Source: an archaeon (GTDB taxonomy: Archaea > Iainarchaeota > Iainarchaeia > Iainarchaeales > 1-14-0-10-31-34). Taken from it: DNA of 21,915 bases. The stretch lies in NCBI GenBank assembly GCA_043815885.1, contig JBDRIL010000056.1, positions 1 to 21,915 of the forward strand, read 5' to 3'. The notes under the pieces were generated by a model, which saw only the letters and a program-made list of their open reading frames with translations, was not told the origin of the DNA and ran no database searches. The position numbers and the translations under genes are program-made. Shown here piece by piece: positions 2,264-21,915 of this stretch. Within the stretch, counting starts at the first letter, position 1. Each line of letters begins with the position of its first letter.

Positions 2264-2371
2264 GGCTTCAATTCAAGGCATCTTTATGCTATTTTTCCTT
2301 GTAGCTTGCTATCTCATCTCTCAATTTTCAGAGCCTCTTTACCATATAATTTTAACTTGTTGGTAAGACCC

Positions 2372-2442
2372 TCTAATATAGGCAATGATGACGTCATTGC
2401 AAATAAACATTTAATGCATTAATGCCTGAAACACTCAGTGCC
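2372..2442. repeat. Diverged duplicate of purH 3' end and downstream flank (att-like direct repeat, copy A)
   Basis: Aligns with 5225-5292. The minus strand encodes GTECFRH* versus GARGFKH* at the purH end. Confidence 0.85.
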
Positions 2443-2477
2443 TAAAAGATTTCAATTTCATTTAAGGAATCACGCTA

Positions 2478-2626
2478 ATATCAAAAGACATTAATTATGA
2501 AACTTTTTTATTGTATACCGAAGGTATGCAATGTTTTTTTTGATAAAACTTTTTCTAAAAGTTTTTTAATGTCTTTTGATAGCTATCAAAGGACAAATTT
2601 TGTTTCTATATTTTGGTCCTTTGGAA
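2478..2626. repeat. Dispersed palindromic element with TATCAAARGACA half-sites (copy 1, with nested hairpin insert)
   Basis: Homologous, in inverted orientation, to 21342-21436. Confidence 0.85.
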
Positions 2627-2803
2627 TCAAAGCTATTATTTACCTTTGAAAAGCAGGGAATAAACGTTTTTTCTTTCGGCGAAGCAAAAAAAATTCTAAA
2701 GATGCCGAATAACTCTTTAAAGAATGTGATTTATCGCTTTAAGAAGAAAAAGAGAATAATTGAAATAAAATTCTCAACACAGTGTTTTAACTCTACGCCC
2801 TGA
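2612..2803 (+). pseudogene. Truncated AbiEi-family antitoxin (N-terminal wHTH fragment)
   Basis: FGPLESKLLFTFEKQGINVFSFGEAKKILKMPNNSLKNVIYRFKKKKRIIEIK parallels the N-terminus of the 1702..2199 protein, then similarity stops. No convincing start, no C-terminal domain, no toxin partner. Confidence 0.6.
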
Positions 2804-2833
2804 CTTTCAACTTCCTGCACCATCAAAACCACA

Positions 2834-2869
2834 ACTTAACAATACTTAACAATACTTAATAATATTTAA
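2834..2869. repeat. Short 10-bp tandem repeat (AATACTTAAC-like, about 3.5 copies)
   Basis: acttaac aatacttaac aatacttaat aatatttaa. Confidence 0.6.
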
Positions 2870-3207
2870 AGACATCCCTATCAAACAAAACCCCCCAGAT
2901 TTTGAAAGTTGTAATTAAAAGTTGGATTGCGCTCCTAAGATGGACTTAGACAAGAAATCGAAACCTGCAACGGCATAATAAACAAGCTGGCTGATTACTG
3001 GCAGAAAAGGGAGAAATAGTTATCACTGGTTTCTCAATGCAGGCCTGTTTTTGTGATAACTGGTTTATACGGTTGTAATAGGGTTAAAATGCCTGTTTTG
3101 ACTCTCTTGTAATAGTATGAATATTGCTTTTCGTAATGAGCAATATGGCGTGTTATTACGCATTATAATGAGCAATATTTAAATACTTGTTTGTCGTATA
3201 ATATGTC

Positions 3208-4527
3208 ATGGTTTTGAAGAAAAAAACATTTACCGCAGACGCAATTTTAGTCAATAAAATAACAAAAGAGCTTTTGGGCACTGTAATAAAAGACCAGTTA
3301 AAGGAATTTGAGGCCTTGAAAGACTCTGTTCCAAGAAGCGTTTTCCCAGAAATAGCAGAATATAAGGGTGCAGCTGCGTTTGTAGTAAAAGGCCTAAGGA
3401 GATGCGGCAAAAGCACTCTTTTAAAGCAAATAATTGAAGCAAAATTCAGGGAAGACTTTTACTATTTCAACTTTGACGATGAAAGAATATTCGGGTTCAG
3501 CGCAGAAGACTTTCAAACCCTAATGGAAACCTTTATTGAAATGTTTGGAAAAAGAAAAAACGTTTTCTTTGATGAAATACAGAACATTAAAGGATGGGAG
3601 TTGTTTGTAAACAGAATTTTAAGGCAAAACTACAGGGTTTTCATAACAGGCTCCAACGCAAACCTTTTGAGCAAAGAACTTGGAACACATTTAACCGGCA
3701 GGCACGTTGACATAGAGCTATTCCCATTCTCATTCACAGAATTCCTGAAGGCAAGAAAAGAAAAAATTCCAGAAAAAGGATTCTATTCAACGGACGAAAA
3801 AGCACAGCTTTCAAGAAGATTCAAGGAATACTTTGAAAAAGGCGGGATGCCTGAAGCAATAGTTTTCTCAAATGATGCAGTACTAAGAGAAGTAATAAAT
3901 GACATAATACAAAAAGATATAGTAACCAGATACAACATAAGAAAGCCGGCTGAACTGAAAGCAGTGCTAAAATTCCTAATTGCAAATATGGCAAATTCCG
4001 TGACCTACCGCTCCATAACAAACAACTTCAAAATAAAAAGCCCGAACACAGTGCAAAAATACACAGAGTATGCTGAAGAAACCTACTTAACATTTACAGT
4101 GCATAAGTATGAGAAAAAACTCAAAAACTTTGACAAAAACCCAAAAAAAGTTTACTGTATAGACAATGGAATAATAAGAGAAAACTCTACTGCCATAAAT
4201 GAAAAAAAAGGCGCAATGCTGGAAAATCTGATAGCAGTGCAGCTCAAGCGGCTCGGAAAAGAATTCTATTATTACAAGGGAAAAACAAGCAGTGCAGAAT
4301 GCGACTTCATACTCCCAAAAGAAAAGCATGCAATACAAGTTTGCTATAACCTGAACGAAAACAACAAAGAAAGGGAAACAAAAGGCCTGCTCGAAGCAAT
4401 GGAAAAAACAAAGGCAAAAAAAGGCCTAATACTGACACTTGACCAAGAACAACAAACCACCAAAGAAAACAAAAAAATAACAATAAAACCAACTTGGCAA
4501 TGGCTCCTGGAAAACGAGCCATCATAA
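3208..4527 (+). CDS. AAA+ ATPase, AAA_14/DUF4143 family
   Basis: Walker A GLRRCGKS, Walker B VFFDEIQ, ITGS, LTGR, GGMPE, KVYCIDNG, ENL, and a C-terminal ECDF...AIQV nuclease-like motif. Confidence 0.93.
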   Translation: MVLKKKTFTADAILVNKITKELLGTVIKDQLKEFEALKDSVPRSVFPEIAEYKGAAAFVVKGLRRCGKSTLLKQIIEAKFREDFYYFNFDDERIFGFSAEDFQTLMETFIEMFGKRKNVFFDEIQNIKGWELFVNRILRQNYRVFITGSNANLLSKELGTHLTGRHVDIELFPFSFTEFLKARKEKIPEKGFYSTDEKAQLSRRFKEYFEKGGMPEAIVFSNDAVLREVINDIIQKDIVTRYNIRKPAELKAVLKFLIANMANSVTYRSITNNFKIKSPNTVQKYTEYAEETYLTFTVHKYEKKLKNFDKNPKKVYCIDNGIIRENSTAINEKKGAMLENLIAVQLKRLGKEFYYYKGKTSSAECDFILPKEKHAIQVCYNLNENNKERETKGLLEAMEKTKAKKGLILTLDQEQQTTKENKKITIKPTWQWLLENEPS

Positions 4528-4565
4528 AACCATCAATTTTAAGGAATAATCCCTATACATTAAAG

Positions 4566-4581
4566 TAGGCAATGATGAGGT
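4566..4581. repeat. Third copy of the 16-bp core TAGGCRATGATGASGT
   Basis: TAGGCAATGATGAGGT; 15/16 identical to each of 2379-2394 and 5230-5245. Confidence 0.75.
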
Positions 4582-4680
4582 AAACTACAAGCAATATATG
4601 ATTCAAATAGGTACTAAATAGAAACATATTTAAATTATATATGGCACATATATTACAGTATGTTTTGTAGGTGGTTTTAG

Positions 4681-4923
4681 ATGAATGTGGATTTTAGAGG
4701 ACGAACAAAACAGATACTGGAGAACATGGTTGAAGAGGGTTATGCGAACACTCAATCCGAAGCAGCCAGACTAGCAATAGTACAGTTTGGAGAAGAACAC
4801 TTCAGTGAAGTGGAAATAGTTAATAGAAAGCTTGATAGAATAGACCAAGACATAAAAGCAGGGAGAAGGAAACTACTTAACAATGACCAAGCCCTTGGCG
4901 AATACGCAAAACACTTGAAGTAA
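4681..4923 (+). CDS. Putative type II antitoxin (ribbon-helix-helix/CopG-like)
   Basis: 80 aa with an RHH-like pattern ILENMVEEGYANTQSEAARLAI; precedes a RelE-like gene; AGGTGG SD; ATATATG-GCA-CATATAT palindrome upstream (4637-4653). Confidence 0.75.
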   Translation: MNVDFRGRTKQILENMVEEGYANTQSEAARLAIVQFGEEHFSEVEIVNRKLDRIDQDIKAGRRKLLNNDQALGEYAKHLK

Positions 4924-4928
4924 TCAAC

Positions 4929-5192
4929 ATGCACAAACCAGGATTTGATGAAGACTGGCCAGAATACTTCAACAAACTAGACCACGCCGTCAAAGAACGT
5001 GCTGCTAAGAAAATAAGGAAAATCCTTGAGTTTCCCAAAAAACGCCACCTAAAGAAAGGCGCCAGGTTCTTCGTTGACGAAATCGGCCAGAGCAGAATCG
5101 TCTACAGAGTATTTGAAGAAAACAACGAAGTCAGGTTCTATTTTATCGGAAACCACAAAGAATACGAAAAATGGTATAAACAATACCTCTAA
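4929..5192 (+). CDS. Putative RelE/ParE-superfamily toxin
   Basis: 87 aa, basic; GQSRIVYRV...FYFIGNHKEY RelE-like C-terminus; downstream of an antitoxin-like gene. Confidence 0.75.
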   Translation: MHKPGFDEDWPEYFNKLDHAVKERAAKKIRKILEFPKKRHLKKGARFFVDEIGQSRIVYRVFEENNEVRFYFIGNHKEYEKWYKQYL

Positions 5193-5224: not shown

Positions 5225-5292
5225 TCTAATAGGCGATGATGAGGTCATTGCAACTGAAACATTTAATGCATTAATGCTTGAATCCTCTTGCC
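5225..5292. repeat. purH 3' end and flank (att-like direct repeat, copy B)
   Basis: Aligns with 2372-2442; contains hairpin GCGATGA-N5-TCATTGC. Confidence 0.85.
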
Positions 5293-6809
5293 CCGGAAAA
5301 AATTAATGCAATTCCCTTTTCGTTTGCTTCTTCTATTACTTCTTTGTCTTTAATGCTTCCCCCTGGCTCAATTACTGCAGTGATTCCGGCTCCTGCAGCC
5401 AAGTCAATGCTGTCCCTAAATGGAAAGAATCCATCTGAAGCAAGAACTGCTCCTTCACTTTTTATTCCTGCCTGTTTCAGTGCAAGGTCAACTGCCCTTA
5501 CTCTTGAGGTCTGCCCTACTCCAATTCCAATTGTTGCCTTTTCTTTTGCAATCACTATTGCATTACTCTTTACGTGTTTTACTACTTTAAATGCAAATAA
5601 AATATCCTGCAATTCTTTTTCACTTGGTTTTTTTTCTGAAACAAACTTTAATTCTCTTTCCTTTAATTCTTTTTCGTCTTTTTCCTGAACCAATAAGCCT
5701 CCATCAATCTTCTTGAATTCAATTTCATTTTTTTCTTTTTTATTTAAATCCAGTTTCATTATTCTCAGGTTCTTTTTTTCTTTCAGTAGCTTCAATGCTT
5801 TTTCTTCAAAAGAGGGAGCAATCACCACTTCATTGAAGAAGGAAGTAATCTCTTTTGCAGTAGCATCATCTATTTTCCTGTTCAATGCAATTATGCCTCC
5901 AAAAGCTGATTCAGCATCGCACTCCAATGCCTTAGTGAATGCTTGGTGCAGTGTTTTTCCTGAAGCAACACCGCAGGGATTTCCGTGCTTTATGATTACT
6001 GCAGTTGGTTCAGGGAATTCCTTCACTAATTCTACTGCAGCATTCAAGTCAAATAAATTATTGAATGAAAGCTCTTTTCCGTGCAATTGCACTGCATTAA
6101 CAGTACTTGAAGCATCTGCAAGGGATTCCTTATAGAGTGAAGCCTTTTGATGAGGGTTTTCCCCATACCTTAAATCCATTAATTTATCAAAGGAAAGAAC
6201 CATTTTCTCCGGGAAACCCCCAGAAAACCTCTTATTAAAGAAACCAGAAATAATTGCATCGTATTCAGCTACATGCTGGAAGGCCTTTACAGCTAATTCC
6301 TCTCTAACTTTTTTATTCAGTGAACCTCTTCCTTTCTTTATTTCATTTAAAATATAATTATAATTAGTATAATCCACTACCACTGCAGCATTCTCATAGT
6401 TCTTTGCAGCAGCCCTAATCAATGTAGGCCCGCCAATGTCTATTTCTTCAATTATTTTTTCCAGAGAAGAAGTCTTCTCCAGAGTCTCCTTGAATGGATA
6501 CAAATTAACTACAATTAAATCAATTCCTTCAATTCCCTGCTTCTTTAATTCACTTAAATGCTTTTTATTCCTTTTTGCAAGGATTCCAGCATGAATTTTA
6601 GGATGAAGGGTTTTCACCCTTCCTTCAAGCATTTCAGGAAAGCCAGTCACCTCTTCAATCGGAATTGCCTTTACTCCCGAATTCCTTAATTTACTGTAAG
6701 TTCCGCCAGTAGAAATTATCTTTACTCCCAATTTCTGCAGTCCTTTAGCAAATTGCACTATCCCTTCTTTATTTGAAACAGAAATCAATGCAGTCTTTAT
6801 TTTACTCAA
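5271..6809 (-). CDS. purH: Bifunctional AICAR transformylase/IMP cyclohydrolase
   Basis: ALISVSNK, ISTGGT, GRVKTLHP, IDIGGPTLIRAAAKN, LRYGENPHQ, KHGNPCG, ASDGFFPF, PGGSIKD. Confidence 0.98.
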   Translation of the reverse strand: MSKIKTALISVSNKEGIVQFAKGLQKLGVKIISTGGTYSKLRNSGVKAIPIEEVTGFPEMLEGRVKTLHPKIHAGILAKRNKKHLSELKKQGIEGIDLIVVNLYPFKETLEKTSSLEKIIEEIDIGGPTLIRAAAKNYENAAVVVDYTNYNYILNEIKKGRGSLNKKVREELAVKAFQHVAEYDAIISGFFNKRFSGGFPEKMVLSFDKLMDLRYGENPHQKASLYKESLADASSTVNAVQLHGKELSFNNLFDLNAAVELVKEFPEPTAVIIKHGNPCGVASGKTLHQAFTKALECDAESAFGGIIALNRKIDDATAKEITSFFNEVVIAPSFEEKALKLLKEKKNLRIMKLDLNKKEKNEIEFKKIDGGLLVQEKDEKELKERELKFVSEKKPSEKELQDILFAFKVVKHVKSNAIVIAKEKATIGIGVGQTSRVRAVDLALKQAGIKSEGAVLASDGFFPFRDSIDLAAGAGITAVIEPGGSIKDKEVIEEANEKGIALIFSGARGFKH

Positions 6810-6815
6810 GCAATT

Positions 6816-7358
6816 TCACCCTTTCACTAATTTTTTCCATCCAAAGCATCCAACAACATCTGAAATGTATGGTGTTCCAATTCTTGTTTTTTTATCTATT
6901 GCGACAACCCATGAATCCATTCTAAGATGTATTCCATGTTTTGAAGCCAATAAAACATTCTTTTTTACTATTTCATCTATCTCTTTTTTATTTTTAACAT
7001 TTTTCGTCTTAACCATGCTTTGCACAACAAATTTGCCTCCTCTGCGTAAATCAGTTAAAACTAATATTGGATTCATTCCATTGGGTTTAACGCACATAAA
7101 TGTCGGAACTACTTTACATCCAATGCTTCTAAACATTGAAAGCATTCTAAAGTCATTTCTTGCCTGATCTTTTGGCAGGTGAGGCTGATAAACTTTTGCG
7201 ACAAAAGGAACTGCTGCTTTACCAAAATAAACTTTTGACCCTCTTATGCTTCCATGAGTACCACTAGCTTCTCTGCCTATCTGTGATTTTGTTACAGTAA
7301 AGCTTATTGGGCGGTCCTTTTCCACCATGTGCTTTTTTGGTCTTCCCATAAAAATCAT
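6816..7358 (-). CDS. Hypothetical basic protein, possible degenerate protein-kinase-like fold
   Basis: Fills the purN-purH gap with an ATGA overlap; GSQ-rich N-lobe-like start, FVAKVY, LVLTDL, HGIHLRMD, YISDV. Confidence 0.7.
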   Translation of the reverse strand: MIFMGRPKKHMVEKDRPISFTVTKSQIGREASGTHGSIRGSKVYFGKAAVPFVAKVYQPHLPKDQARNDFRMLSMFRSIGCKVVPTFMCVKPNGMNPILVLTDLRRGGKFVVQSMVKTKNVKNKKEIDEIVKKNVLLASKHGIHLRMDSWVVAIDKKTRIGTPYISDVVGCFGWKKLVKG

Positions 7359-7975
7359 TTCAATATTTTTACTTTTTCCCCTTCAACCTTTATTTTTCCT
7401 TCTCCAAATAATTTAATTGCTTTCACTAAAACCTCTTGCTCTGCCTTCTGTACCTTTTCTTTCAGCGAATCAACTGTTTCATTCCCAGAAATCCTTACTT
7501 CCTTCTGCAGAATAATTGGCCCTGAATCAAGTTCCTCTGTAGCAAAATGCAATGTACAACCACTAACCTCAACTCCTGCATCCAATACCTCTTGATGCAC
7601 ATCCTTATCCATCCCCCCTGCAAAAGCAGGAAGCAATGATGGATGAATATTCATTACTTTATTCTTATACTTTTCAATGAATGGCTTGCTTAAAAACCGC
7701 ATATATCCAATCAATAAAACCAATTCCACTTTTCTTTTCTCTAATTCCTTTATTGCTTCTTTATCGAATTCCTCTCTTGAAGGAAACTTCTTTGGATCAA
7801 TGAATACAGCTGGAATTGAATGCTTTCTTGCCCTCTCCATACAATAAGCATCTTTTTTATTGGATATAAGCACAGAGACCTTTGCATTAAGCTCTCCTTT
7901 ATTTATTGCTTCCATCACTCCTTTCAAGTCAGAAGCTTTTGTCGAAGCTAGAACTCCAATACTCAGTTCCTTCAT
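7355..7975 (-). CDS. purN: Phosphoribosylglycinamide formyltransferase
   Basis: VLLIGYMRFL, MNIHPSLLPAF, SGCTLHF, LDSGPIILQ. Confidence 0.97.
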   Translation of the reverse strand: MKELSIGVLASTKASDLKGVMEAINKGELNAKVSVLISNKKDAYCMERARKHSIPAVFIDPKKFPSREEFDKEAIKELEKRKVELVLLIGYMRFLSKPFIEKYKNKVMNIHPSLLPAFAGGMDKDVHQEVLDAGVEVSGCTLHFATEELDSGPIILQKEVRISGNETVDSLKEKVQKAEQEVLVKAIKLFGEGKIKVEGEKVKILK

Positions 7976-8669: not shown

Positions 8670-8927
8670 TTAGGCCTTCAATCTAATTGGAATATTTGTA
8701 GCAACAATTTCAGGGTATTCCTTGGATTGCTTGAGTTGCCCAACAACTTCTTTTATTGTCCCGATTCCTTTTGCGGTTTCAATATACAATTCAACAGCTT
8801 CAGTAATATTCTTTTTTGCTTCTTCAAAGGTTTCTCCTTGCGAAGCAACTCCAAGTTCTGGGCAAAAGACAGAATAGCCTTTTTTTTCCTCTTTGAAAAC
8901 TACAGTCAAAAAGAATTTTTTATCCAT
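8670..8927 (-). CDS. hicB: HicB-family antitoxin
   Basis: GYSVFCPELGVASQGETFEEAKKNITEAVELYIE. Confidence 0.9.
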   Translation of the reverse strand: MDKKFFLTVVFKEEKKGYSVFCPELGVASQGETFEEAKKNITEAVELYIETAKGIGTIKEVVGQLKQSKEYPEIVATNIPIRLKA

Positions 8928-10856: not shown

Positions 10857-11087
10857 TTAGAATTCATTCTCTGCAACAGAACCCTGCTTGATGCAGGTGT
10901 TTCCTTCATCTATTATTCCATCACAGTCATCATCCAATCCATTGCATAACTCGTTTTGTGGAATGCATTCATTCTCAGCTGTTGCTTCAGTAGGAAACCC
11001 CACAGGAGAAGAGAAAAAAGAATTAAGAGTAACATAAGCTAAAGCAAAAATAAGCACTACGATATAGACTGCCATTACCCTCTTCAT
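10857..11087 (-). CDS. Small membrane-anchored protein with putative metal-binding motif (Cu-binding_MopE-like)
   Basis: N-terminal TM/signal; ELCNGLDDDCDGIIDEG. Confidence 0.8.
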   Translation of the reverse strand: MKRVMAVYIVVLIFALAYVTLNSFFSSPVGFPTEATAENECIPQNELCNGLDDDCDGIIDEGNTCIKQGSVAENEF

Positions 11088-11140
11088 AACAAAATAGATG
11101 CTTTAACTTGTTTTTAATTATTTGCTTTTTCTGCTGATAG

Positions 11141-11180
11141 AATCAGTAAATAATGAATCCCTTGCACAATTCAATTACTT
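11141..11180. repeat. Perfect 40-bp duplicate of glyA 3' end (att-like)
   Basis: AATCAGTAAATAATGAATCCCTTGCACAATTCAATTACTT is identical to 12593-12632. Confidence 0.97.
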
Positions 11181-11186
11181 TTTCCA

Positions 11187-11837
11187 TTATTCTCTTTCTA
11201 TTTCTTTTAATGTCTCGTCATAATATTTTTTGAATTTTGTTTTTTCAAGTAATTCATTTAATTTTTCCTGGTTTATTTCTAGTTTTAGTAAGCCCTGAAT
11301 GTCTCTTTTGTCTTTTTCTATTTTTGCTTTTAGTCTGTCTCTTGAGAATTTTGATAGGTTTGCCCATGTCTTTATTTTGTATTGCCTGTCTTTTAGTGCT
11401 GCTGTCTTGTATAGCAGCAATACTTCTTTTTCTGGTACTCTTGCTGTTACATCTTTATTTATTTTCCATTCTTTACTGTTTTTGTCTGCCAACTTCCATG
11501 GAATTTCAATTGATTTATTTGAAGCAAGAGTGTTTTTGTCTGATAGCGTAAAAATATCCAACTCAATTTCTTTTTCACCTGTTTCTTTTCTGAATAGTGT
11601 CCTGGTTTTGGCTTTCCTATCTTTTTTGAAACCATATTGTTTACTGTATTTTTCAAATACTTGAATTACTTGTTTTGTTGGAAGCACTAAATCAATGTCA
11701 ATTGAACCAGCTCCTTTTGTATAATAGTATACAGCCCAGCCGCCTATTATGATTGGATGCAGGCCATGAATGTTGAATAACTTTGTTGTCTTAATTAATT
11801 CTTTGAATGAAAGCTCTGTTAATTTGTTTGAATTCAT
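11187..11837 (-). CDS. Pol-beta-superfamily nucleotidyltransferase (putative type IV TA toxin)
   Basis: IIIGGWAV...SIDIDLV, ELDIF, LLLYK, KDKRDI. Start placed at ATG 11837 behind GAGGA. Confidence 0.82.
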   Translation of the reverse strand: MNSNKLTELSFKELIKTTKLFNIHGLHPIIIGGWAVYYYTKGAGSIDIDLVLPTKQVIQVFEKYSKQYGFKKDRKAKTRTLFRKETGEKEIELDIFTLSDKNTLASNKSIEIPWKLADKNSKEWKINKDVTARVPEKEVLLLYKTAALKDRQYKIKTWANLSKFSRDRLKAKIEKDKRDIQGLLKLEINQEKLNELLEKTKFKKYYDETLKEIERE

Positions 11838-11839
11838 GT

Positions 11840-12442
11840 TTATTCCTCGAACTTTAGGCCCCAAAGCTGCTTGTATAGGTCTCTTGCATAAAATGATTTA
11901 TTGTCGCAAACTAAATCAATTAGGGTTCTTATCTTGCTTGTCACTGTAAAGCCTTTAATTTTATTGGTTTCTGGTTTAATGTCTGGCTTAAACATCCAAA
12001 GCATTGTGTTGCCTCCAGTTAATGGCTTGAATTCCTTTTCTATTTTTTTGAATTCTTTTGAGTTTTCTTCAACGTAAACACAAACCCTGTCAGAACGCCA
12101 GTAACCAGAATAAAACTCTAAAGCCGAATCAAGGCAAAGCATTGTTCCTTTCGGCAGTCTATTGATTACTTGTTTTATTGAAAGCCTTAAAGGAAGCTTC
12201 TTCAAAACCAATGAATTTATGTCCCTATACAAAGGAAACAAAGAAATCAGCCCAGCAGGATCAATTAACTCGTATTCCCTTCCTCTTTTTTCAACAAAAT
12301 TCTTATTAACAAGCCACTGCACTACTTCATTCATTCTACCCCAAGAAACTTCAGTATCCTTAAATACTTTTGTTTGGGTAAAAACAGGATTAAGCAAAAC
12401 AAAAGAAACAACCTTGTAAGTTTGCTTTGAAGTTAATTTCAT
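11840..12442 (-). CDS. wHTH regulator, AbiEi-like putative antitoxin
   Basis: N-terminal HTH (FTQTKVFKDTEVSWGRMNEVVQWL); C-terminal VTSKIRTLIDL resembles the AbiEi C-terminal motif; directly upstream of the NTase. Confidence 0.78.
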   Translation of the reverse strand: MKLTSKQTYKVVSFVLLNPVFTQTKVFKDTEVSWGRMNEVVQWLVNKNFVEKRGREYELIDPAGLISLFPLYRDINSLVLKKLPLRLSIKQVINRLPKGTMLCLDSALEFYSGYWRSDRVCVYVEENSKEFKKIEKEFKPLTGGNTMLWMFKPDIKPETNKIKGFTVTSKIRTLIDLVCDNKSFYARDLYKQLWGLKFEE

Positions 12443-12474
12443 AAAATATTAATTAAGTAAAACTGTTTTTAAAG

Positions 12475-12512
12475 ATATCGGTAAAAACCGATATTTAAAC
12501 AAAAAACCGATA
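12475..12512. promoter_or_regulatory. Putative operator of the HTH/NTase operon
   Basis: ATATCGGT-AAAA-ACCGATAT inverted repeat plus a third half-site AAAAACCGATA. Confidence 0.55.
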
Positions 12513-12592
12513 ATGAGAGATTCGTGTAATATGGCTTCCAAAAGAATATCATAAGTTTCGCTTTAAAGCGAAAATACTTTTTCAATTAATAA

Positions 12593-12632
12593 AATCAGTA
12601 AATAATGAATCCCTTGCACAATTCAATTACTT
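12593..12632. repeat. glyA 3' end, second copy of the 40-bp repeat
   Basis: Identical to 11141-11180. Confidence 0.97.
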
Positions 12633-13824
12633 CCTGCCTGATTTTCTTTCTTTCCCCTGCATCATCCTTTTTCTCGATTGTTTTTGCAATAAGCCTCCCT
12701 GTTTCCTTCATCTCTCCTTCCTTCATTCCTCTTGTAGTTAAAGCAGGAGTGCCTAACCTTATTCCTGACGGATCCAATGGCTTTCGTGAATCAAATGGAA
12801 TCATGTTCTTATTGCAGTAAATTCCAACTTCATCCAATACAGTTTCTGCTTCTTTTCCAGTAACTCCTTTATCAGTTAAATCAATTAAAAGAAGATGATT
12901 GTCTGTTCCCCCGCTCACCAGTCTGAATCCATGGGACTGTAGTTCTTCTCCTAAAGCCTTTGCATTTTTCACTATTTGTTTGCTGTAGTCCTTGAATTCC
13001 GGTTTTAATGCTTCCCTGAATGCAACTGCCTTTCCAGCATTAATATGGTCATGAGGCCCTCCTTGTAAACCGGGAAAAACTGCTTTATCTATTTTTTTAG
13101 CGAATTCTTCCTTGCACATTATCATTGCCCCTCTGGGGCCTCTCAAAGTTTTATGTGTTGTTGTAGAGACAACATCAAAGAATGGAACAGGGTTTTCATG
13201 AACTCCTGCTGCGCACAATCCAGCAATATGGGCAATATCTGCAAAGCAGTAAGCTCCAACCTCATCACAGATCTTTCTGAATTCCTTGAAATCAATTGCC
13301 CTTGGATAAGCAGTAAAACCAGAAAGAATCATTTTTGGTTTTTCTTTCTCAGCAATCTTTCTAATCTTATCATAATCAAGCATTTCGCTTTCTTTTTCCA
13401 CTCCATAGGGAACCACATTATAGTATCTCCCGCTGAAGTTAACCTTTGACCCATGCGTTAAATGCCCTCCATGAGCCAAATCCATTCCCATGAATTTATC
13501 TCCAATTTCCATTAAAGCATAATAGACTGCCTGATTAGCTGGAGAGCCACTGTAAGGCTGTACATTCACATGCTCTGCATCAAATAATTTCTTTGCTCTT
13601 TCAATTGCTAAATCCTCCACTACATCAACAAATTCATTTCCCCCATAGTATCTCTTGTGGGGATATCCTTCAGAATATTTATTAGTAAAAACTGAACCCA
13701 TTGCCTCCATTACAGCTTTGCTTACATAATTCTCTGAAGCAATTAATTCCAGTCCATCCATCTGCCTCTGCTTTTCGTCCTCAATTGCCTTCGCTATTTC
13801 TGCATCAGCTTTCTCCAAAAACAT
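12595..13824 (-). CDS. glyA: Serine hydroxymethyltransferase
   Basis: [58 protein letters not shown]. Confidence 0.98.
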
Positions 13825-14884: not shown

Positions 14885-15175
14885 TCATATTTTTGAGAGA
14901 TATTTTTCAAGGTCGCGGTAGTTCTTTTTTCTTTCAAGAAGGCAGACTATCAATATATTGGGTTCAAGCACGATGTAAATGAGCCTTGTTTCCTTTCCCT
15001 GTAGATTCAGCCTTACACGGAATACCTTGTGGAATTTTTTTGAATGAATCCGTTTGAATCTGAAGGGGTTTTCCTTTATTAGCGCAATCTTTTCCTGAAT
15101 TATTCTTTTGCTTTTTTCATCGATTTTTTTGATTTGCTTGAGAAAGAATTCCAGTGCTTCAACCCTGAAGCTCAT
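14885..15175 (-). CDS. RelE/ParE-superfamily toxin
   Basis: 96 aa, basic; FLKQIKKID...KENPFRFK...FRVR...RLIY; ATGA overlap with the antitoxin. Confidence 0.82.
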   Translation of the reverse strand: MSFRVEALEFFLKQIKKIDEKSKRIIQEKIALIKENPFRFKRIHSKKFHKVFRVRLNLQGKETRLIYIVLEPNILIVCLLERKKNYRDLEKYLSKI

Positions 15176-15426
15176 TGCAATGCCTTCATGAGTTTCTCTT
15201 CATCCACGAATTTCTTTTTCTTGATGGATTTCTCAATCAGGGAATCAATCAATTCAATTTCCTTTTCAGAGAAGGATTCATCAAAATCGCTTTTTTCAAA
15301 GATCTTTTCCCTGACGGATTCGTTGACCAATTCCTGCAAATTCCTGTAGCCATAGTTCTCTGCAAAAGACTCTGCAGCATTGTAAAGATTAGAGGACATT
15401 TTCAGGTTAATTTGTTTGGTAGCCAT
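15172..15426 (-). CDS. Putative antitoxin (RHH-like)
   Basis: KQINLKMSSNLYNAAE...ELVNESVREK, acidic C-half; upstream of a RelE-like gene. Confidence 0.78.
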   Translation of the reverse strand: MATKQINLKMSSNLYNAAESFAENYGYRNLQELVNESVREKIFEKSDFDESFSEKEIELIDSLIEKSIKKKKFVDEEKLMKALQ

Positions 15427-15448: not shown

Positions 15449-17272
15449 TTATTTAAAGGTTTTTGTTTTCTTTTTCTTTAATGCAATAGCGTATGCTTTA
15501 AGGTAATTCTTTACCAGTTTGTTCCAGTCAAATAAATAAGACATTTTTTTGGCGCGGATTTTTTTGTCTCCTCGCTCCTTTTTGTTCATGCAATAGATTT
15601 TTTCCATCATGTCTGCGAGTTGTTTTACTGCCTGATTGTAGGTTCTGTACTCCCTTTCAATTATTTCTATTGAACCATTTGCTTTCTTTCCTATTTTCTT
15701 CTTAACATATCTTCCGAAACCGCTTAAGTCAGAGGTTACTGTCTGTAATCCAAGGGTTGCTGCTTCCAATGGAGTGTAACCCCATGGTTCGTAGTAGGAA
15801 GGAAACACTCCCAAATGAGAGCCCATCATTGCAGGATACACGTCCAGGCTTAAGAGACAGTCAGTTGAACTAAGGTAAGCAGGATAGAAAATCACTTTCA
15901 CTTTATCATTCACTTTATTGGATAAATTATTCTTTTTGATTGCTTTAGTTATTTCGTTTCCCTTCTCCAATTCAAATGCAGAGATAGGGGGAAGTTTTCT
16001 GTTCTTTGACCTCAATTCCACAAGCATTTTGGAAATCGTGTGCTTGAATTCTTCATCCAGTAATTCCTCTCCCCTTGGAGTCATTCCCATTGAAATAAAC
16101 CTGAATATCCTTTCCTTGATGTCACTCATTTCTGAATCAATTTCTTCCTCCATCCTGTCATAAATAGCCATATGCTTTAATACCTCTAAATTCTTTCCCC
16201 TTGTTTTTATTGGAGTCCATATAAATACAATCACCTTTCTCTGCAGTTCTGATTTCTTCAGTCTGTTATTAAGCTCCCCCAATGCATCAATGAAAATGTC
16301 TACTCCTTTATTCCTGAATTCATATCTCCCAAGAATGAAAAAAAACAAGGTGTCCCTGACATCAATGTAATAATATGGGGCAAAATAATCTATAACGAAT
16401 TCCCTTATCCTGTTCCGGTATTTCAGGTGAAGTGTTGAGAGCTCTTCCATGAATGGAAACTTCTCCATATCCAATCCGTTTGGAACAATTACGTCTGCCT
16501 TTTTTGCCAGGATATATTCTGCTTCAATTGAGGTTATTTCGCTTACAGTCGTAAATACGTCTGCCTCTTTTGCAGATTTTTTTTCCATTAAATGAATTGC
16601 CTCTAACCTGTATTTCCTGCTTTCCCTGTCAGGAAAATGAGTTCCTTTTTTCAGGTTGTTTTCCACTAACTCGTACAGGTTTTTCCCTGAATTCGCTATT
16701 GCCCTTCCAATCCTTGTTGCATGGGTAGTGAAGACAGTCTTTATTTTCGGGTTAGCGAGCTTTAAATGAAGCAGTCCTGCTCCTGAATACCATTCATGGA
16801 AATGAGCAATAACTTTCTCTTTTGGGAAAACTTCTTTTGTCAGTTCATCAATCAGTATTCCTGTTGCCTTGCTCCAGGCAATCCTTTCATCGAATTCCTT
16901 TGGGCTGTTAAGAGAATCAATCTTCCAGTTCTTCCAGTACTCTTTCTTTATTTCATCAGTGTTTTTACTGTATTCCTCTACATCAATCAACAGGCATTTT
17001 GGACGGCCAGGAACAATCCAATGGCCGGAATAACACTTTATCCCGAATTTTTCCAGTTTATCAAACACCCTTCTGAATTCCTTGCTTGGAGGCTCATCCT
17101 CAAAATCCACTGCCGCCTGCCTCGGAATATAAGGCCCTACAAGAAAATAACCCTTCAGGTTATTCTTCATTATCGAGGCCTTAGAGGAAAGAACAGTATG
17201 AATTCCTCCAACCTTATTAACGACCTCAAACCCTACCTCAAAAACAATACAGTCCTTCTTCATCCCATCCAC
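15449..17272 (-). CDS. Glycogen synthase, GT3 family
   Basis: FEVGFEVVNKVGGIHTV, HFHEW, FTTHAT, GRYEFRNKG, GVFPSYYEPWGYTPLE. The start may be ATG 17263. Confidence 0.95.
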   Translation of the reverse strand: MDGMKKDCIVFEVGFEVVNKVGGIHTVLSSKASIMKNNLKGYFLVGPYIPRQAAVDFEDEPPSKEFRRVFDKLEKFGIKCYSGHWIVPGRPKCLLIDVEEYSKNTDEIKKEYWKNWKIDSLNSPKEFDERIAWSKATGILIDELTKEVFPKEKVIAHFHEWYSGAGLLHLKLANPKIKTVFTTHATRIGRAIANSGKNLYELVENNLKKGTHFPDRESRKYRLEAIHLMEKKSAKEADVFTTVSEITSIEAEYILAKKADVIVPNGLDMEKFPFMEELSTLHLKYRNRIREFVIDYFAPYYYIDVRDTLFFFILGRYEFRNKGVDIFIDALGELNNRLKKSELQRKVIVFIWTPIKTRGKNLEVLKHMAIYDRMEEEIDSEMSDIKERIFRFISMGMTPRGEELLDEEFKHTISKMLVELRSKNRKLPPISAFELEKGNEITKAIKKNNLSNKVNDKVKVIFYPAYLSSTDCLLSLDVYPAMMGSHLGVFPSYYEPWGYTPLEAATLGLQTVTSDLSGFGRYVKKKIGKKANGSIEIIEREYRTYNQAVKQLADMMEKIYCMNKKERGDKKIRAKKMSYLFDWNKLVKNYLKAYAIALKKKKTKTFK

Positions 17273-18213: not shown

Positions 18214-19398
18214 ATGAAGATTTTAATGCTTGGATGGGAGTTTCCTCCATTCAAGTCTGGAGGCCTAGGAACATATCTTTATGGCTTCACTAAATCCCTC
18301 GCTCAAAAAAATATTGAAATTACTTTTGTAATGCCCCGCACCGAAAGCAGGATTGACCCTGGATTCATAAAGATAATACAGCCAAACATGAAGCTGGTTG
18401 GATTGGATGGAATCAGCCTGACTCCATACCTTGCATCAATTGATTTAAGTGAAGGAACTGATTCAGATGAATCTTCCAAAAAAGCTTATGGATGGGATTT
18501 CTTTAACGAAGTCAAAAGATTTACTTTTGCTGCAGTAAGGGCAGTGAAGAATGAATCCTGTGACGTAATCCACTGCCATGACTGGATGACTTTTCCTGCA
18601 GGAATTGCATTAAAGAAACAGAAGCAAAAGCCTTTAATAGTGACAATTCATTCAACTGAATTCGACAGGACAGGAAACCTTTCCCCTCACCCGGCAATAA
18701 CTGAAGTTGAATACAATGGATTAAAGGAAGCAGACAGAATAATCACTGTAAGCAATTACATGAAAAAACAGTTAATTGAAAGATACTCTATTCCTGAAGA
18801 AAAAATTACTGTTGTCCATAATGCAGTGGAAAAAAACGAGTACTCTTTAAGGGAAAGAACCTCTTTCGGCCTGAAAGAAAAGATAGTATTGTTTTTAGGA
18901 AGGCTGACAATACAGAAAGGGCCTGACTGGTTTTTGGAGGCAGCTTACAGGGTTTTAAAGGCAAGCCCTGACACTCGTTTTGTAATTGTCGGAGACGGAG
19001 ACATGCTTCCCGAATTAATAAATAAATCCATTGCAATGGGCATCAGCGATAAAGTGATTTTCACTGGCTTCAAGGATGACGTATTAAAATTCTATGGCTC
19101 TGCAGACTTGTTTGTAATGAGTTCTGTTTCAGAGCCATTCGGTTTAACTGCCCTTGAAGCAATGGCTTCAGGAACCCCGACAATAATCTCAAAACAGTCA
19201 GGAGTAAGCGAAGTAGTAAACCACTGCATGAAGGTTGATTTCTGGGACAGCGATGAAATGGCAAACAAGATTCTGGGAGTGTTAAACTATGAATCCATGA
19301 GAAAAGAAATGAAGCACAATTCCTTAATTGAAGTCCAGAAATTTTCTTGGGATGACGTTGCAGAAAAATGCCTAAACATTTACAAGGAAGTGGCATAA
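18214..19398 (+). CDS. Glycosyltransferase family 4 (glycogen-synthesis associated)
   Basis: MLGWEFPP..SGGLG, IHCHDWMT, HSTEFDR, FLGRLTIQKG, SEPFGLTALEAM. Confidence 0.95.
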   Translation: MKILMLGWEFPPFKSGGLGTYLYGFTKSLAQKNIEITFVMPRTESRIDPGFIKIIQPNMKLVGLDGISLTPYLASIDLSEGTDSDESSKKAYGWDFFNEVKRFTFAAVRAVKNESCDVIHCHDWMTFPAGIALKKQKQKPLIVTIHSTEFDRTGNLSPHPAITEVEYNGLKEADRIITVSNYMKKQLIERYSIPEEKITVVHNAVEKNEYSLRERTSFGLKEKIVLFLGRLTIQKGPDWFLEAAYRVLKASPDTRFVIVGDGDMLPELINKSIAMGISDKVIFTGFKDDVLKFYGSADLFVMSSVSEPFGLTALEAMASGTPTIISKQSGVSEVVNHCMKVDFWDSDEMANKILGVLNYESMRKEMKHNSLIEVQKFSWDDVAEKCLNIYKEVA

Positions 19399-19399
19399 A

Positions 19400-19633
19400 A
19401 TGAATTGGAAGGAATTCTTCAAGCCAACAAAAGAAAAAATAATTTTGTTCATTGTTCTATTTTTTGTTGGGGCAACTATTTTTTTCCAGATCGAAAATGC
19501 TGCAGTTACTTATTTTTGGATTTTGTTGTTTTTTACAATTACCTTTATTTTTTGTTATTTGATCTCCTGTATTAGTAGCGCAATTGCTGGTTTTATCATC
19601 TCTGCTTTCAATAAATTCAAGGAGAAGAAGTAA
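19400..19633 (+). CDS. Small membrane protein (MNWKxFxKPTKEKIILF paralog 1)
   Basis: Hydrophobic; tightly abuts both neighbours; paralogous to 20824..21123. Confidence 0.8.
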   Translation: MNWKEFFKPTKEKIILFIVLFFVGATIFFQIENAAVTYFWILLFFTITFIFCYLISCISSAIAGFIISAFNKFKEKK

Positions 19634-20827
19634 ATGCCTTCAATCTGCCTTTACTTTCACGTGCACCAGCCTTTGAGGCTGAAGCATTATTCTTTCTTTG
19701 ATATCGGGAGAAGCCATGAATACTTTGACGCGGAAAGAAATAATGCTTACCTGGAGAGAATAATACGGAAATGCTATCTCCCCACAAACACTAAACTGCT
19801 TGAATTAATTCACAGGTTTGATGGAAGATTCAAGTTCTGCTTCAGCATTACAGGAGTCATTCTTGAACAACTGCAATCATTTAATCCAAAGGTAATTGAT
19901 TCATTCCAGGAATTAGTGGATACAGGTTTAGTTGAATTATTTGATGAAACCTATTACCATTCGCTTGCATTCCTTGTATCCAAAAAGGAATTCAGGGAAC
20001 AGGTAAAACAGCATTCAAAGAAATTCAGGCAGACATTCGGAGTAAAGCCAAGAATCTTCAGGAATACAGAGGCAATGTATTCAAATGAAATTGCATCAGA
20101 GGCAGAGAGAATGGGCTACAAGGCAATAATTGCTGAAGGCCTTTCAAATGTATTGGGATGGAGGTCTCCAAACTATATTTACAATGCAAAGAATTCAGGC
20201 ATAAAGCTTCTGCTCAGAAACTACGAGCTATCGGATGACATTTCCTTCAGGTTTTCTTCAAGGGACTGGAAGGAATGGCCGCTTACCGCAGACAAGTATG
20301 CTTTTTGGTTAGCGTCTTCTGAAGGGCAATGCATTAATCTCTTCATGGACTATGAAACCTTTGGAGAACACCAATGGATTGAAACAGGTATATTTGATTT
20401 CCTGGATTTCTTTCCAGGAGAAGCACTAAGATATGAAAACCTTGAATTCTGCACTGCATCAGAACTGATTAAGAAGCACAAGCCAGTGGGAGAGTTTGAT
20501 GTCCCGTACATTTCTTCTTGGGCTGACGTCCACAGGGATTTGAGTGCATGGCTTGAAAACTCAATGCAGCAGCAGGCATTCAATGAATTAAAGGCATTGG
20601 AAAAAAAGGTAATGCATTCAGGGAACAAGAAAGTAATAAATGACTGGAGGAATTTAGGAATCAGTGACCACTTTTACTACATGTGCACTAAATGGTTTGC
20701 TGACGGTGACGTCCATAAATACTTTAATCCTTTCGATTCTCCTTATGATGCATTCCTGAATTACATGAATATTTTAACTGACTTAAAGAATGAATTAACT
20801 AAAAGCAAAAAAGTGGGATTAAGTTGA
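19634..20827 (+). CDS. Glycoside hydrolase family 57 (alpha-amylase-like)
   Basis: FHVHQP, ETYYHSL, FRNTE, LSDDISFRFS, MDYETFGEHQW, SDHFYYM. Confidence 0.96.
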   Translation: MPSICLYFHVHQPLRLKHYSFFDIGRSHEYFDAERNNAYLERIIRKCYLPTNTKLLELIHRFDGRFKFCFSITGVILEQLQSFNPKVIDSFQELVDTGLVELFDETYYHSLAFLVSKKEFREQVKQHSKKFRQTFGVKPRIFRNTEAMYSNEIASEAERMGYKAIIAEGLSNVLGWRSPNYIYNAKNSGIKLLLRNYELSDDISFRFSSRDWKEWPLTADKYAFWLASSEGQCINLFMDYETFGEHQWIETGIFDFLDFFPGEALRYENLEFCTASELIKKHKPVGEFDVPYISSWADVHRDLSAWLENSMQQQAFNELKALEKKVMHSGNKKVINDWRNLGISDHFYYMCTKWFADGDVHKYFNPFDSPYDAFLNYMNILTDLKNELTKSKKVGLS

Positions 20828-21123
20828 ATTGGAAAAATTTCATTAAACCAACAAAAGAAAAAATAATTTTGTTTATTTTGTTTTTGTTAGTTAACACTTT
20901 TGTGCCTTTAACCCCCTTTTTTATGGTATTGAAGGCTTGTCTGAATCCTCCCTGCCCAAACACAATATTAACTTTTGGTTCATATGTAGCGGAAAGTTTT
21001 TTGGCGAGTTTAATTTTTTTCCCGATAAACTTGATTATTTTAATAATCAATCTTGTTTTCTGGTATCTGATTTCATGCTTGATTATTTTTGCTTTTAATA
21101 GATTTAAGGACAAGAAAAAATAA
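20824..21123 (+). CDS. Small membrane protein (MNWKxFxKPTKEKIILF paralog 2)
   Basis: TTG start overlapping the GH57 stop; two TM regions flanking a CLNPPC loop; paralogous to 19400..19633. Confidence 0.8.
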   Translation: MNWKNFIKPTKEKIILFILFLLVNTFVPLTPFFMVLKACLNPPCPNTILTFGSYVAESFLASLIFFPINLIILIINLVFWYLISCLIIFAFNRFKDKKK

Positions 21124-21445: not shown

Positions 21446-21915
21446 TCATTTCTTCAGTGCGCATGCATACGCCTTAGAGTACTCTTTTATCAGGCTTCCC
21501 CAGTCAGCCAGTCCAGCCAGCTCTTTTGCGTGCATCTTTTCCCTCATTCTTTCTCTTCTATTTTTTTTACAGAAGGAATGCATTATCCTGGTTAATTCCT
21601 GGACTTCTTCTTTTGGTTTTTCTTTTCTATTCAATACAATTATTCCGCCCTTCTTTTTTCTCTTTTCTTCAATGAACTGCCCAAATCCAGCGAAATCAGT
21701 AGTTACTGCAGGCACTCCCAATGCAGCAGTCTCTAATGGAGTGTAACCCCATGGTTCGTAGTAGGAAGGAAACACCCCCAGATGACCTCCAGTCAGTGCA
21801 GCATAATAACTCAATCCAATGAATCCGTCTGCAGGGGAAAGATAAGTGGGATAATAGATTACCTTTACCTTGTCTTCTTTCCTGTTCAGTAAATTATTTT
21901 TCTTTATTGCCCAGG
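21446..21915 (-). CDS. Second GT3 glycogen synthase, C-terminal part (begins beyond window end)
   Basis: Frame is open to the window edge (WAIKKNNLLNRKEDKVKVIYYPTYLSPADG...); GVFPSYYEPWGYTPLE; paralogous to 15449..17272. Confidence 0.93.
   Translation of the reverse strand, partial: WAIKKNNLLNRKEDKVKVIYYPTYLSPADGFIGLSYYAALTGGHLGVFPSYYEPWGYTPLETAALGVPAVTTDFAGFGQFIEEKRKKKGGIIVLNRKEKPKEEVQELTRIMHSFCKKNRRERMREKMHAKELAGLADWGSLIKEYSKAYACALKK

Follow-up and report, generated by a model that had tools for sequence, protein, structure and literature searches.

How does a small two-gene unit come to lie between two identical copies of the end of a housekeeping gene, with no recombinase encoded beside it? 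The question is raised by contig JBDRIL010000056.1 of GenBank assembly GCA_043815885.1, from an archaeon of the order Iainarchaeales. The window, that is, the whole stretch of DNA that was analysed, is this contig (C56) at its full length of 21,915 bp, and the genome bin to which it belongs comprises 1.16 Mb in 62 contigs (36.8% G+C, 91.7% complete). An exact 40-mer taken from the end of glyA (serine hydroxymethyltransferase) stands on both sides of a cassette that encodes a helix-turn-helix (HTH) protein, HTH200, and a nucleotidyltransferase (NT), NT225. We consider it probable that the cassette was inserted in the glyA tail with a long duplication of the target and was kept there by addiction. 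In the following, WIN is the window locus, L numbers are related loci, G numbers are genomes (G000 is the window's own), C numbers are contigs and X1–X5 are sequencing runs.

The duplicated glyA end and the cassette between its copies

The two copies of the 40-mer are spaced by 1452 bp, with 1412 bp between them. The features of the locus are as follows.

11141–11180, minus strand: left repeat copy; it duplicates the end of glyA, is non-coding and begins 6 nt past the toxin stop codon.
11187–11837, minus strand: NT225, a MenT/AbiEii-like nucleotidyltransferase and putative toxin; ATG at 11837, with an upstream TTG at 11864 also open.
11190–11279, minus strand: mosaic segment, the last ~90 nt of NT225, 83–92% identical to the cassette of locus L051 (core only 40–70%).
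11840–12442, minus strand: HTH200, putative regulator/antitoxin (AbiEi-like), with an N-terminal winged helix and a C-terminal nucleotidyltransferase-like domain.
12466–12513, minus strand: predicted cassette promoter region, with a TATA-like box at 12466–12473, a palindrome ATATCGGT-N4-ACCGATA at 12475–12493 and a third half-site at 12506–12513.
12556–12573, no strand assigned: a further palindrome (TTTCGC-N6-GCGAAA) of the operator type of other cassette subfamilies, separated from the right repeat by 19 nt.
12593–12632, minus strand: right repeat copy, the functional glyA end (35 coding nt, the stop codon at 12595–12597 and 2 nt past the stop), contiguous with the glyA open reading frame (ORF).
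12595–13824, minus strand: glyA, the target gene, encoding serine hydroxymethyltransferase of 409 amino acids (aa) (Pfam SHMT, E = 6.1e-172).

The right copy is the native end of glyA, whose protein-level sequence is conserved in relatives (81% aa identity of the glyA product to the nearest relative). An earlier reading made from the letters alone (the sequence-only reading) had described the 40-mer as the last 12 codons, stop and 2 nt of glyA on both sides. The match is indeed exact and unique, and only the codon count was slightly generous (11 codons and 2 nt of the twelfth). Identity ends with the 40-mer, as the exact extension is 0 at both sides; the ungapped similarity beyond it is weak (11/16 downstream of glyA and 10/16 on the gene-internal side, where the flank is T/C-rich low-complexity coding sequence at both copies). 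A repeat scan with divergence allowed gave 75 nt at 85%. No match to the 40-mer, with up to 3 mismatches allowed, was obtained in 100 dinucleotide shuffles, and neither a third copy nor any 16-mer or 20-mer of it occurs across the 62 contigs of the genome. It follows from simple geometry that recombination between the copies would excise 1452 bp and leave glyA intact, as had been stated.

Both junctions are probably real and an assembly error is unlikely. L045, a 1584-nt metagenome contig of the Joint Genome Institute, matches 11281–12864 at 99.75% and spans the right copy, with glyA on one side and the cassette on the other. All 4 of its mismatches fall inside glyA; the contig thus represents a slightly different strain, assembled separately, and the glyA–repeat–cassette junction is independently present. 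For the left copy, the bridge is a 151-nt record from a different study (run X3); it matches 11081–11231 with 0 differences and links the toxin end, across the repeat, to the flank downstream. The contigs that Logan provides (k = 31) for the probable source run, X1, end inside the repeats (e.g. at 11170), because a k = 31 graph must break at a 40-bp repeat, and they are uninformative either way. Runs X2–X5 gave small shares, and X4 represents a relative at ~88–93% identity. In principle, the assembler might have placed in the chromosome a sequence with the same 40-mer that did not belong there, namely a free circle of 1452 bp or a strain variant. Points in keeping with such an artefact are that the genome is a metagenome bin of 62 contigs, that the repeat is shorter than many assembly k-mers, that many homologues lie on ~1.5-kb contigs and that Logan contigs stop at repeats. 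The joins in L045, which comes from a different assembly, and in the X3 record, together with the same architecture in other genomes, one of which has an empty-site partner, make this explanation very improbable.

The cassette has the same orientation as glyA; its two genes overlap, and 150 nt of DNA lie upstream of them. Its earlier description as an HTH and nucleotidyltransferase pair was borne out by homologue alignments, by structure models and by the fold matches of these models (winged HTH (wHTH) and nucleotidyltransferase). NT225 matches no Pfam family. The 39 aligned homologues keep GG-W-A, S-x-D-x-D, K144, R151 and K175-D176-x-x-D179, and the invariant residues include G32, G33, S45, D47 and D49. 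The AlphaFold model of NT225 (predicted local distance difference test (pLDDT), 94.3) has its best Foldseek match in MenT1 (8an4; E = 1.5e-6, template modelling (TM) scores 0.58/0.65, 12% identity), followed by MenT3/TglT, MenT4, JHP933, ANT(2'') and LnuA. The Pfam AbiEii model (PF08843) is matched below threshold by 7 of the 39 family members (best E = 2.2e-4), and single members match ANT(2''), DUF2204 and DUF6036, also below threshold. A profile of the toxin family searched against the PDB sequences gave only weak LnuA matches (E = 0.36).

For HTH200, the TrmB HTH model (E = 0.0038) and the PADLOC AbiEi model (E = 7.7e-4) are matched below their cut-offs, and AbiEi models are matched below threshold by several of its 29 homologues (best E = 2.4e-5). 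In its structure model (pLDDT 94.4), residues 1–72 match a MarR-like wHTH with a Z score of 8.9, indicating a clear winged helix, and residues 87–200 match TM1012 (Z 8.3) and MenT1 (Z 7.8), which are middling values. A Foldseek search with HTH200 returned nothing at E ≤ 0.001; AbiEi (6y8q) stood at rank 23 with E = 0.029. The complex predicted from the toxin and HTH alignments scored 0.01 and is not used as evidence. The models and the analogy with characterised pairs suggest that the insert is a complete, self-promoted two-gene unit of the AbiE/MenAT kind, i.e. a putative toxin-antitoxin pair.

The predicted promoter region is located ~25–70 nt before the HTH200 start codon. Its TATA-like box, palindrome and half-site are kept in the six closest loci (WIN, L039, L046, L048, L049, and L050), where the surrounding DNA is not conserved. 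Palindromes of the TTTCGC type, often in tandem, occur 50–90 nt upstream of the HTH gene in L051, L063, L093, L095, L097, L100, L105, and L107. The cassette is tightly delimited, by the repeat, 19 nt and the palindrome at one end and by the toxin stop, 6 nt and the repeat at the other, and there are no terminal inverted repeats at the insert ends. Its identity to cassettes of the L039/L046/L048 type is 70–82% and falls to 40–57% over the last ~90 nt of NT225, the segment that is of L051 type. Since this segment is 83–92% identical to L051 while the glyA genes of the two loci share only 75.8% nt identity, the cassette ends appear to have been exchanged between lineages later than the core genes diverged. 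No recombinase is encoded among the ORFs of the cassette or the window, in agreement with the sequence-only reading, and PF00589 hits in the genome occur only on C36 and C49.

Related cassettes and their flanking repeats

The HTH–NT pair was found at 6 genome and 70 metagenome loci, with both genes adjacent at 54 of the 76; no related locus was found on viral contigs. The closest homologues come from metagenome-assembled genomes labelled archaeon, Iainarchaeum, Diapherotrites or Micrarchaeota. A homologue that is 92% identical lies on a Logan contig of 4130 nt. Within the order, 46 of 196 genomes match at E ≤ 1e-10, ~30 of them strongly. The distribution is patchy over genera, and several copies contain in-frame stops. 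On C14 of the window's own genome there is a paralogous HTH–NT pair (~66% nt identity) that has no flanking repeats.

Repeats tightly bracketing the cassette, defined as lying within 450 nt upstream and 300 nt downstream of it, were compared with those around shifted pseudo-cassettes in the same loci and around random places in the window's genome. Of 44 non-redundant other loci, 6 had such repeats; among the controls, none of the 62 shifted and 8 of the 500 random positions did. With the cut-off at E < 1e-10, the values become 4/44, 0/62 and 1/500, respectively. When the flanks were widened to 2.5 kb (E < 1e-5), repeats were found at 6 of 39 non-redundant loci, 4 of 43 shifted and 11 of 399 random positions. 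The repeats at related loci are listed below with their identities.

L067, 37/38: aconitase-family gene, false 5' end with a start codon and 21 codons before a stop.
L128, 42/42: codons 2–15 of a 159-aa gene.
L122, 50/53: similarity goes on, diverged, on both sides.
L140, 33/35: promoter-like spacer.
L123, 17/17.
L137, 14/14.
L048, 73/74, truncated where the contig stops: within an ORF that matches no Pfam family, outside the tight bracket.

It had been asked earlier whether homologous modules are flanked by glyA ends or by the ends of other genes, and the answer is that the repeats come from other local gene ends. Those of WIN, L067, L122, L128, L140 and L048 are unrelated local sequences, as compared by eye and with blastn and without a formal motif search. 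Repeat lengths in the tight-bracket set range from 14 to 53 nt. No tRNA gene lies in any repeat, and tRNA and Rfam scans of the window found none. The downstream copy begins 6, 7 and 8 nt past the toxin stop in the window, L128 and L123, respectively; on the upstream side, 96–328 nt separate the repeat from the HTH gene. The ORFs scanned beside the related loci (68 + 124) included a DDE transposase and a TnpB-like gene, and tyrosine or serine recombinases were absent.

A filled and an empty site were found for the sister cassette L128. In G170, a 217-aa gene is followed by 35 nt, the repeat (42/42), the cassette, the toxin stop, 7 nt, the second repeat copy and the 159-aa gene. In G010, which belongs to the same genus and whose flanks are 82% identical, the left flank runs straight into a single repeat copy (33/42 identical) and the 159-aa gene. 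The expectation that relatives would show the empty site therefore held for this sister cassette, and no empty site was seen for the window locus. A search for the empty site of L122 gave right-flank matches only.

Two of the related loci have further peculiarities. In G170 the toxin ORF of L128/L150 (on C3) is 246 aa long instead of ~220 aa, and its 3' end, at positions ~2050–2220 of the query used against these genomes, matches many short places in G170 and G010, which suggests that a dispersed short repeat may have lodged in the gene end. At L083, a related cassette is located between 4428–4828 and 6881–7271, two copies (~85–90% identical) of the end of an HK97-like capsid gene with two small genes; given these capsid-gene copies, the cassette lies inside a provirus-like region.

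Similar duplications were observed elsewhere in the window's genome. On C23, a 43/44 repeat (5766–5809 and 7705–7748; L115 2767–2810 and 4706–4749), derived from the start of a GDE_C glycogen-debranching gene (promoter and first codons), encloses two toxin-antitoxin pairs, namely a DUF4258 gene with a MazE-like Zn-ribbon protein gene and an MNT gene with a HEPN gene. The DUF4258/MazE-like pair also sits between glyA and folD in G002 and L051. In the window, a 49/54 repeat (2378–2430 and 5229–5282), which covers spacer and the 3' end of purH, encloses the gene of an AAA_14/DUF4143 ATPase (3208–4527) and the small ORFs 4681–4923 and 4929–5192. An AAA_14/DUF4143 ATPase gene (2291–3544) on C14 is likewise surrounded by a 98-nt repeat (91%; 2066–2162 and 3549–3646; L116), whose second copy begins 5 nt past the ATPase stop codon; neighbouring genes encode AbiEii and Fic. 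Two other repeats of the window were considered as insertions and rejected, both looking like ordinary paralogy: 19388–19453 and 20811–20877 cover the ends of a pair of genes for glycogen metabolism, both with a small ORF behind them, and 15765–15838 and 21732–21805 lie inside two glycosyltransferase-like ORFs.

Small addiction-type genes are also found near the core operon. They comprise a ParE-like toxin gene (14885–15175, sub-threshold) with an upstream 84-aa partner (whole stretch 14885–15426) and a HicB-like antitoxin gene at 8670–8927. A canonical AbiEii toxin gene (938–1711, Pfam PF08843, E = 3.7e-29) lies behind that of a 165-aa partner (1702–2199) on the minus strand (938–2199); these two genes, 9 kb away from the glyA cassette, form another toxin-antitoxin pair of the nucleotidyltransferase type.

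The glyA–folD interval and the origin of the duplication

The genes glyA, folD, purN and purH lie on one strand. Among the glyA loci of 29 relatives, folD follows glyA within 1.5 kb at 19, often within tens of bases. The cassette, a MopE-like gene, p149 (a 149-aa ORF) and VIT1, which separate glyA from folD in the window, are present at 0 of these 29 loci, as are the exact window flanks. Other genes occupy the interval elsewhere: the DUF4258/MazE-like pair in G002, two small genes in G005 and, in the syntenic contig L051, a 138-aa gene, the DUF4258/MazE-like pair and an HTH–NT cassette of another subfamily (49–50% aa identity). The L051 cassette ends 6 nt before folD, without the glyA-tail repeat. 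The interval is a hot spot, a conserved operon junction that serves as a landing strip for cassettes that differ between lineages. Within the sample, one X1 contig lacks 10335–10857 (p149) and has 9 other letters instead, a presence/absence polymorphism without direct repeats. An apparent second glyA tail in G005 was dismissed as merely a 141-nt overlap of two contig ends.

In the history that we favour, a self-contained toxin-antitoxin cassette of 1.41 kb would have inserted into the last 12 codons of glyA and duplicated 40 bp; with this part of the target duplicated, glyA keeps a complete end. The insertion would have arisen without a site-specific enzyme, either by a single crossover of a circularised fragment consisting of the cassette and a short piece of the conserved neighbour gene, or by template switching during replication. 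The repeats would persist because a deletion between the copies removes the antitoxin gene and kills or arrests the cell. By analogy with MenT/AbiE, NT225 would block translation by adding nucleotides to tRNA 3' ends, and HTH200 would repress the operon and neutralise the toxin.

The sequence of events may also have been the reverse, with the cassette as an old resident of the glyA–folD interval and a block from a sister strain as the newcomer. Such a block would start 35 nt inside a glyA tail, carry the MopE-like gene, p149 and VIT1, and be joined behind the toxin gene by homology-facilitated illegitimate recombination, with a single illegitimate joint and a single homologous crossover farther downstream, and the repeat would be a by-product of allele mixing. 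This account agrees with the HTH–NT cassette that stands directly before folD in the same interval of syntenic L051, with the L051-type extremities of the window cassette (its last ~90 nt and the upstream palindrome), and with the variation of the interval among relatives and within the sample. The 11/16 match of the 16 nt after both copies is what diverged alleles of one spacer might give. The X4 contigs, which suggest another gene order, put the MopE-like gene upstream of a related cassette, and the X4 glyA contig does not continue into the cassette, a weak point given the ~88–93% identity and one joint of only 32 letters. We nevertheless hold this history to be unlikely: in G170 and G010 it is the cassette itself that is present or absent between the copies, tight repeats recur around the cassette in unrelated contexts, and the downstream repeat 6–8 nt past the toxin stop is an architecture shared by WIN, L128 and L123. 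Furthermore, 40/40 identity next to 11/16 is hard to obtain by simple allelic divergence, and the glyA tail of L051 differs at ~8 of 39 positions.

Integrative elements with attachment (att) sites at gene 3' ends are known, as are recombinase-less, cis-mobilisable derivatives of them. The window locus resembles them in that direct repeats bracket the insert and rebuild the target 3' end, and in that recombination would release a circle; a 40-bp repeat over the 3' end of a conserved gene is indeed the classic geometry of such elements in archaea and bacteria. The repeats could accordingly be the attL and attR sites of a decayed or non-autonomous element whose recombinase acted in trans, as for the cis-mobilisable elements of bacteria. 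The genome's two tyrosine recombinases, encoded on C36 and C49, are candidates, or a passing element may have supplied the enzyme; the cassette of L083 in its provirus-like setting would fit. Against this origin, which appears decidedly unlikely to us, stand the lack of a recombinase beside the cassette in the window and among the 192 neighbouring ORFs of related loci, and the nature of the repeats, which share no visible core, differ in length, include promoters and 5' coding ends and do not lie in tRNA genes. The varying upstream end of the insert also means that the element has no fixed end. There is a similarly slender chance that HTH–NT pairs, and perhaps other addiction genes of small-genome archaea, constitute an undescribed autonomous mini-element, which would insert at gene boundaries via its own proteins or via host replication or repair, making duplications of 14–53 bp with the downstream copy 6–8 nt past the toxin stop.

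Several observations weigh against the favoured history of insertion with target duplication. The excess of repeats in wide flanks is not significant relative to the shifted controls, and only the tight bracket separates a signal from repeat-rich islands. The 40/40 identity is the sole basis for calling the event recent, and the cassette appears to be a mosaic of two subfamilies, which weakens the idea of one clean, recent insertion, points to a longer history and lends itself to the account of a resident cassette. The case of L051 likewise means that the window cassette may be an old resident and that the duplicated tail arrived with the neighbouring genes. Neither an empty site nor a circle junction was seen for the window locus in the k = 31 contigs, the only ones examined, and as Logan contigs are unable to bridge the 40-mer, their absence there carries no weight. 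Both NT225 and HTH200 remain below every curated family threshold, and toxicity, antitoxicity and addiction are properties that we infer by analogy. The same applies to the route of the duplication; the passages of PMC2853133 used here give no mechanism.

Relation to known systems

Integron gene cassettes are small one- or two-gene units, often toxin-antitoxin genes, that gather at a hot spot. The glyA cassette is likewise a small two-gene unit at a hot spot. It differs from them in that its repeats copy housekeeping gene ends and in that it has its own promoter, and an integron cassette was rejected because there is no IntI nearby (the PF00589 hits being confined to C36 and C49) and no shared attC-like element. 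A DNA transposon or insertion sequence was rejected as well, as the insert ends have no inverted repeats, the duplication measures 40 bp and no transposase is present.

Insertion with long target duplication of restriction-modification gene units was reportedly described by Nobusato et al. in 2000 (Gene 259:99). The term was later applied to restriction-modification units with an insert of <20 kb, a duplication of >30 bp, no other mobile element and an empty site in a related genome (Furuta, Abe & Kobayashi 2010, NAR, PMC2853133). In the parts of that paper used here, examples have 46–47-bp repeats over gene 3' ends and no mobility genes, and no archaeal case passed the repeat-flank screen (PMC2853133). 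The window locus has a complete unit in 1412 bp, a 40/40 repeat of the target and no mobility gene, and no transposase family was found in the window ORFs scanned. As in the published cases, an addiction-type unit without a mobility gene thus lies between direct repeats of >30 bp that derive from the local target and differ from site to site, and an empty site is found in a related genome, here for the sister cassette of G170 and G010. The cargo is different, as it is a putative toxin-antitoxin pair and not restriction-modification genes, and the host is an archaeon instead of a bacterium. A literature search judged mainly by titles turned up no use of the term for toxin-antitoxin cassettes or archaea, a negative that is weak evidence. 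In PMC2654758 the phrase "long target duplication" appears only in the reference list, and PMC4158269 deals in this respect with proviruses only.

Nucleotidyltransferase toxin-antitoxin systems include AbiE (AbiEi/AbiEii) and MenAT (MenA/MenT), as outlined in the parts of the literature used here (PMC7450476, PMC10435456, PMC11375011). The cassette shares with them the two-gene operon with the putative regulator or antitoxin first, promoter palindromes, and a first gene that encodes a wHTH and a second domain. The predicted minimal nucleotidyltransferase fold, with GG..DxD and KxxAxxxR-like motifs and MenT1 as the best structural match, is a further likeness. The differences are that neither cassette protein reaches a Pfam or PADLOC threshold, that NT225 has 216 aa compared with ~290 aa in AbiEii/MenT3, and that the C-terminal domain of HTH200 itself seems to be nucleotidyltransferase-like (Z 7.8–8.3, middling).

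Little is understood of how toxin-antitoxin and other defence or addiction genes come to spread into compact genomes when neither transposases nor integrases are involved. The window locus, its repeat-flanked sisters and one filled/empty pair together provide the signature of long target duplication for a putative toxin-antitoxin pair in archaea. They also define a putative nucleotidyltransferase toxin family and its partner, both of which are missed by current Pfam and PADLOC models. As the organisms are uncultured, the value of these findings lies for now in comparative genomics. If HTH–NT pairs did prove to be a mini-element, mobility would reside in the cassette as a unit instead of in a recombinase, and the cassette would offer a tractable two-gene model for the 25-year-old puzzle of long target duplication.

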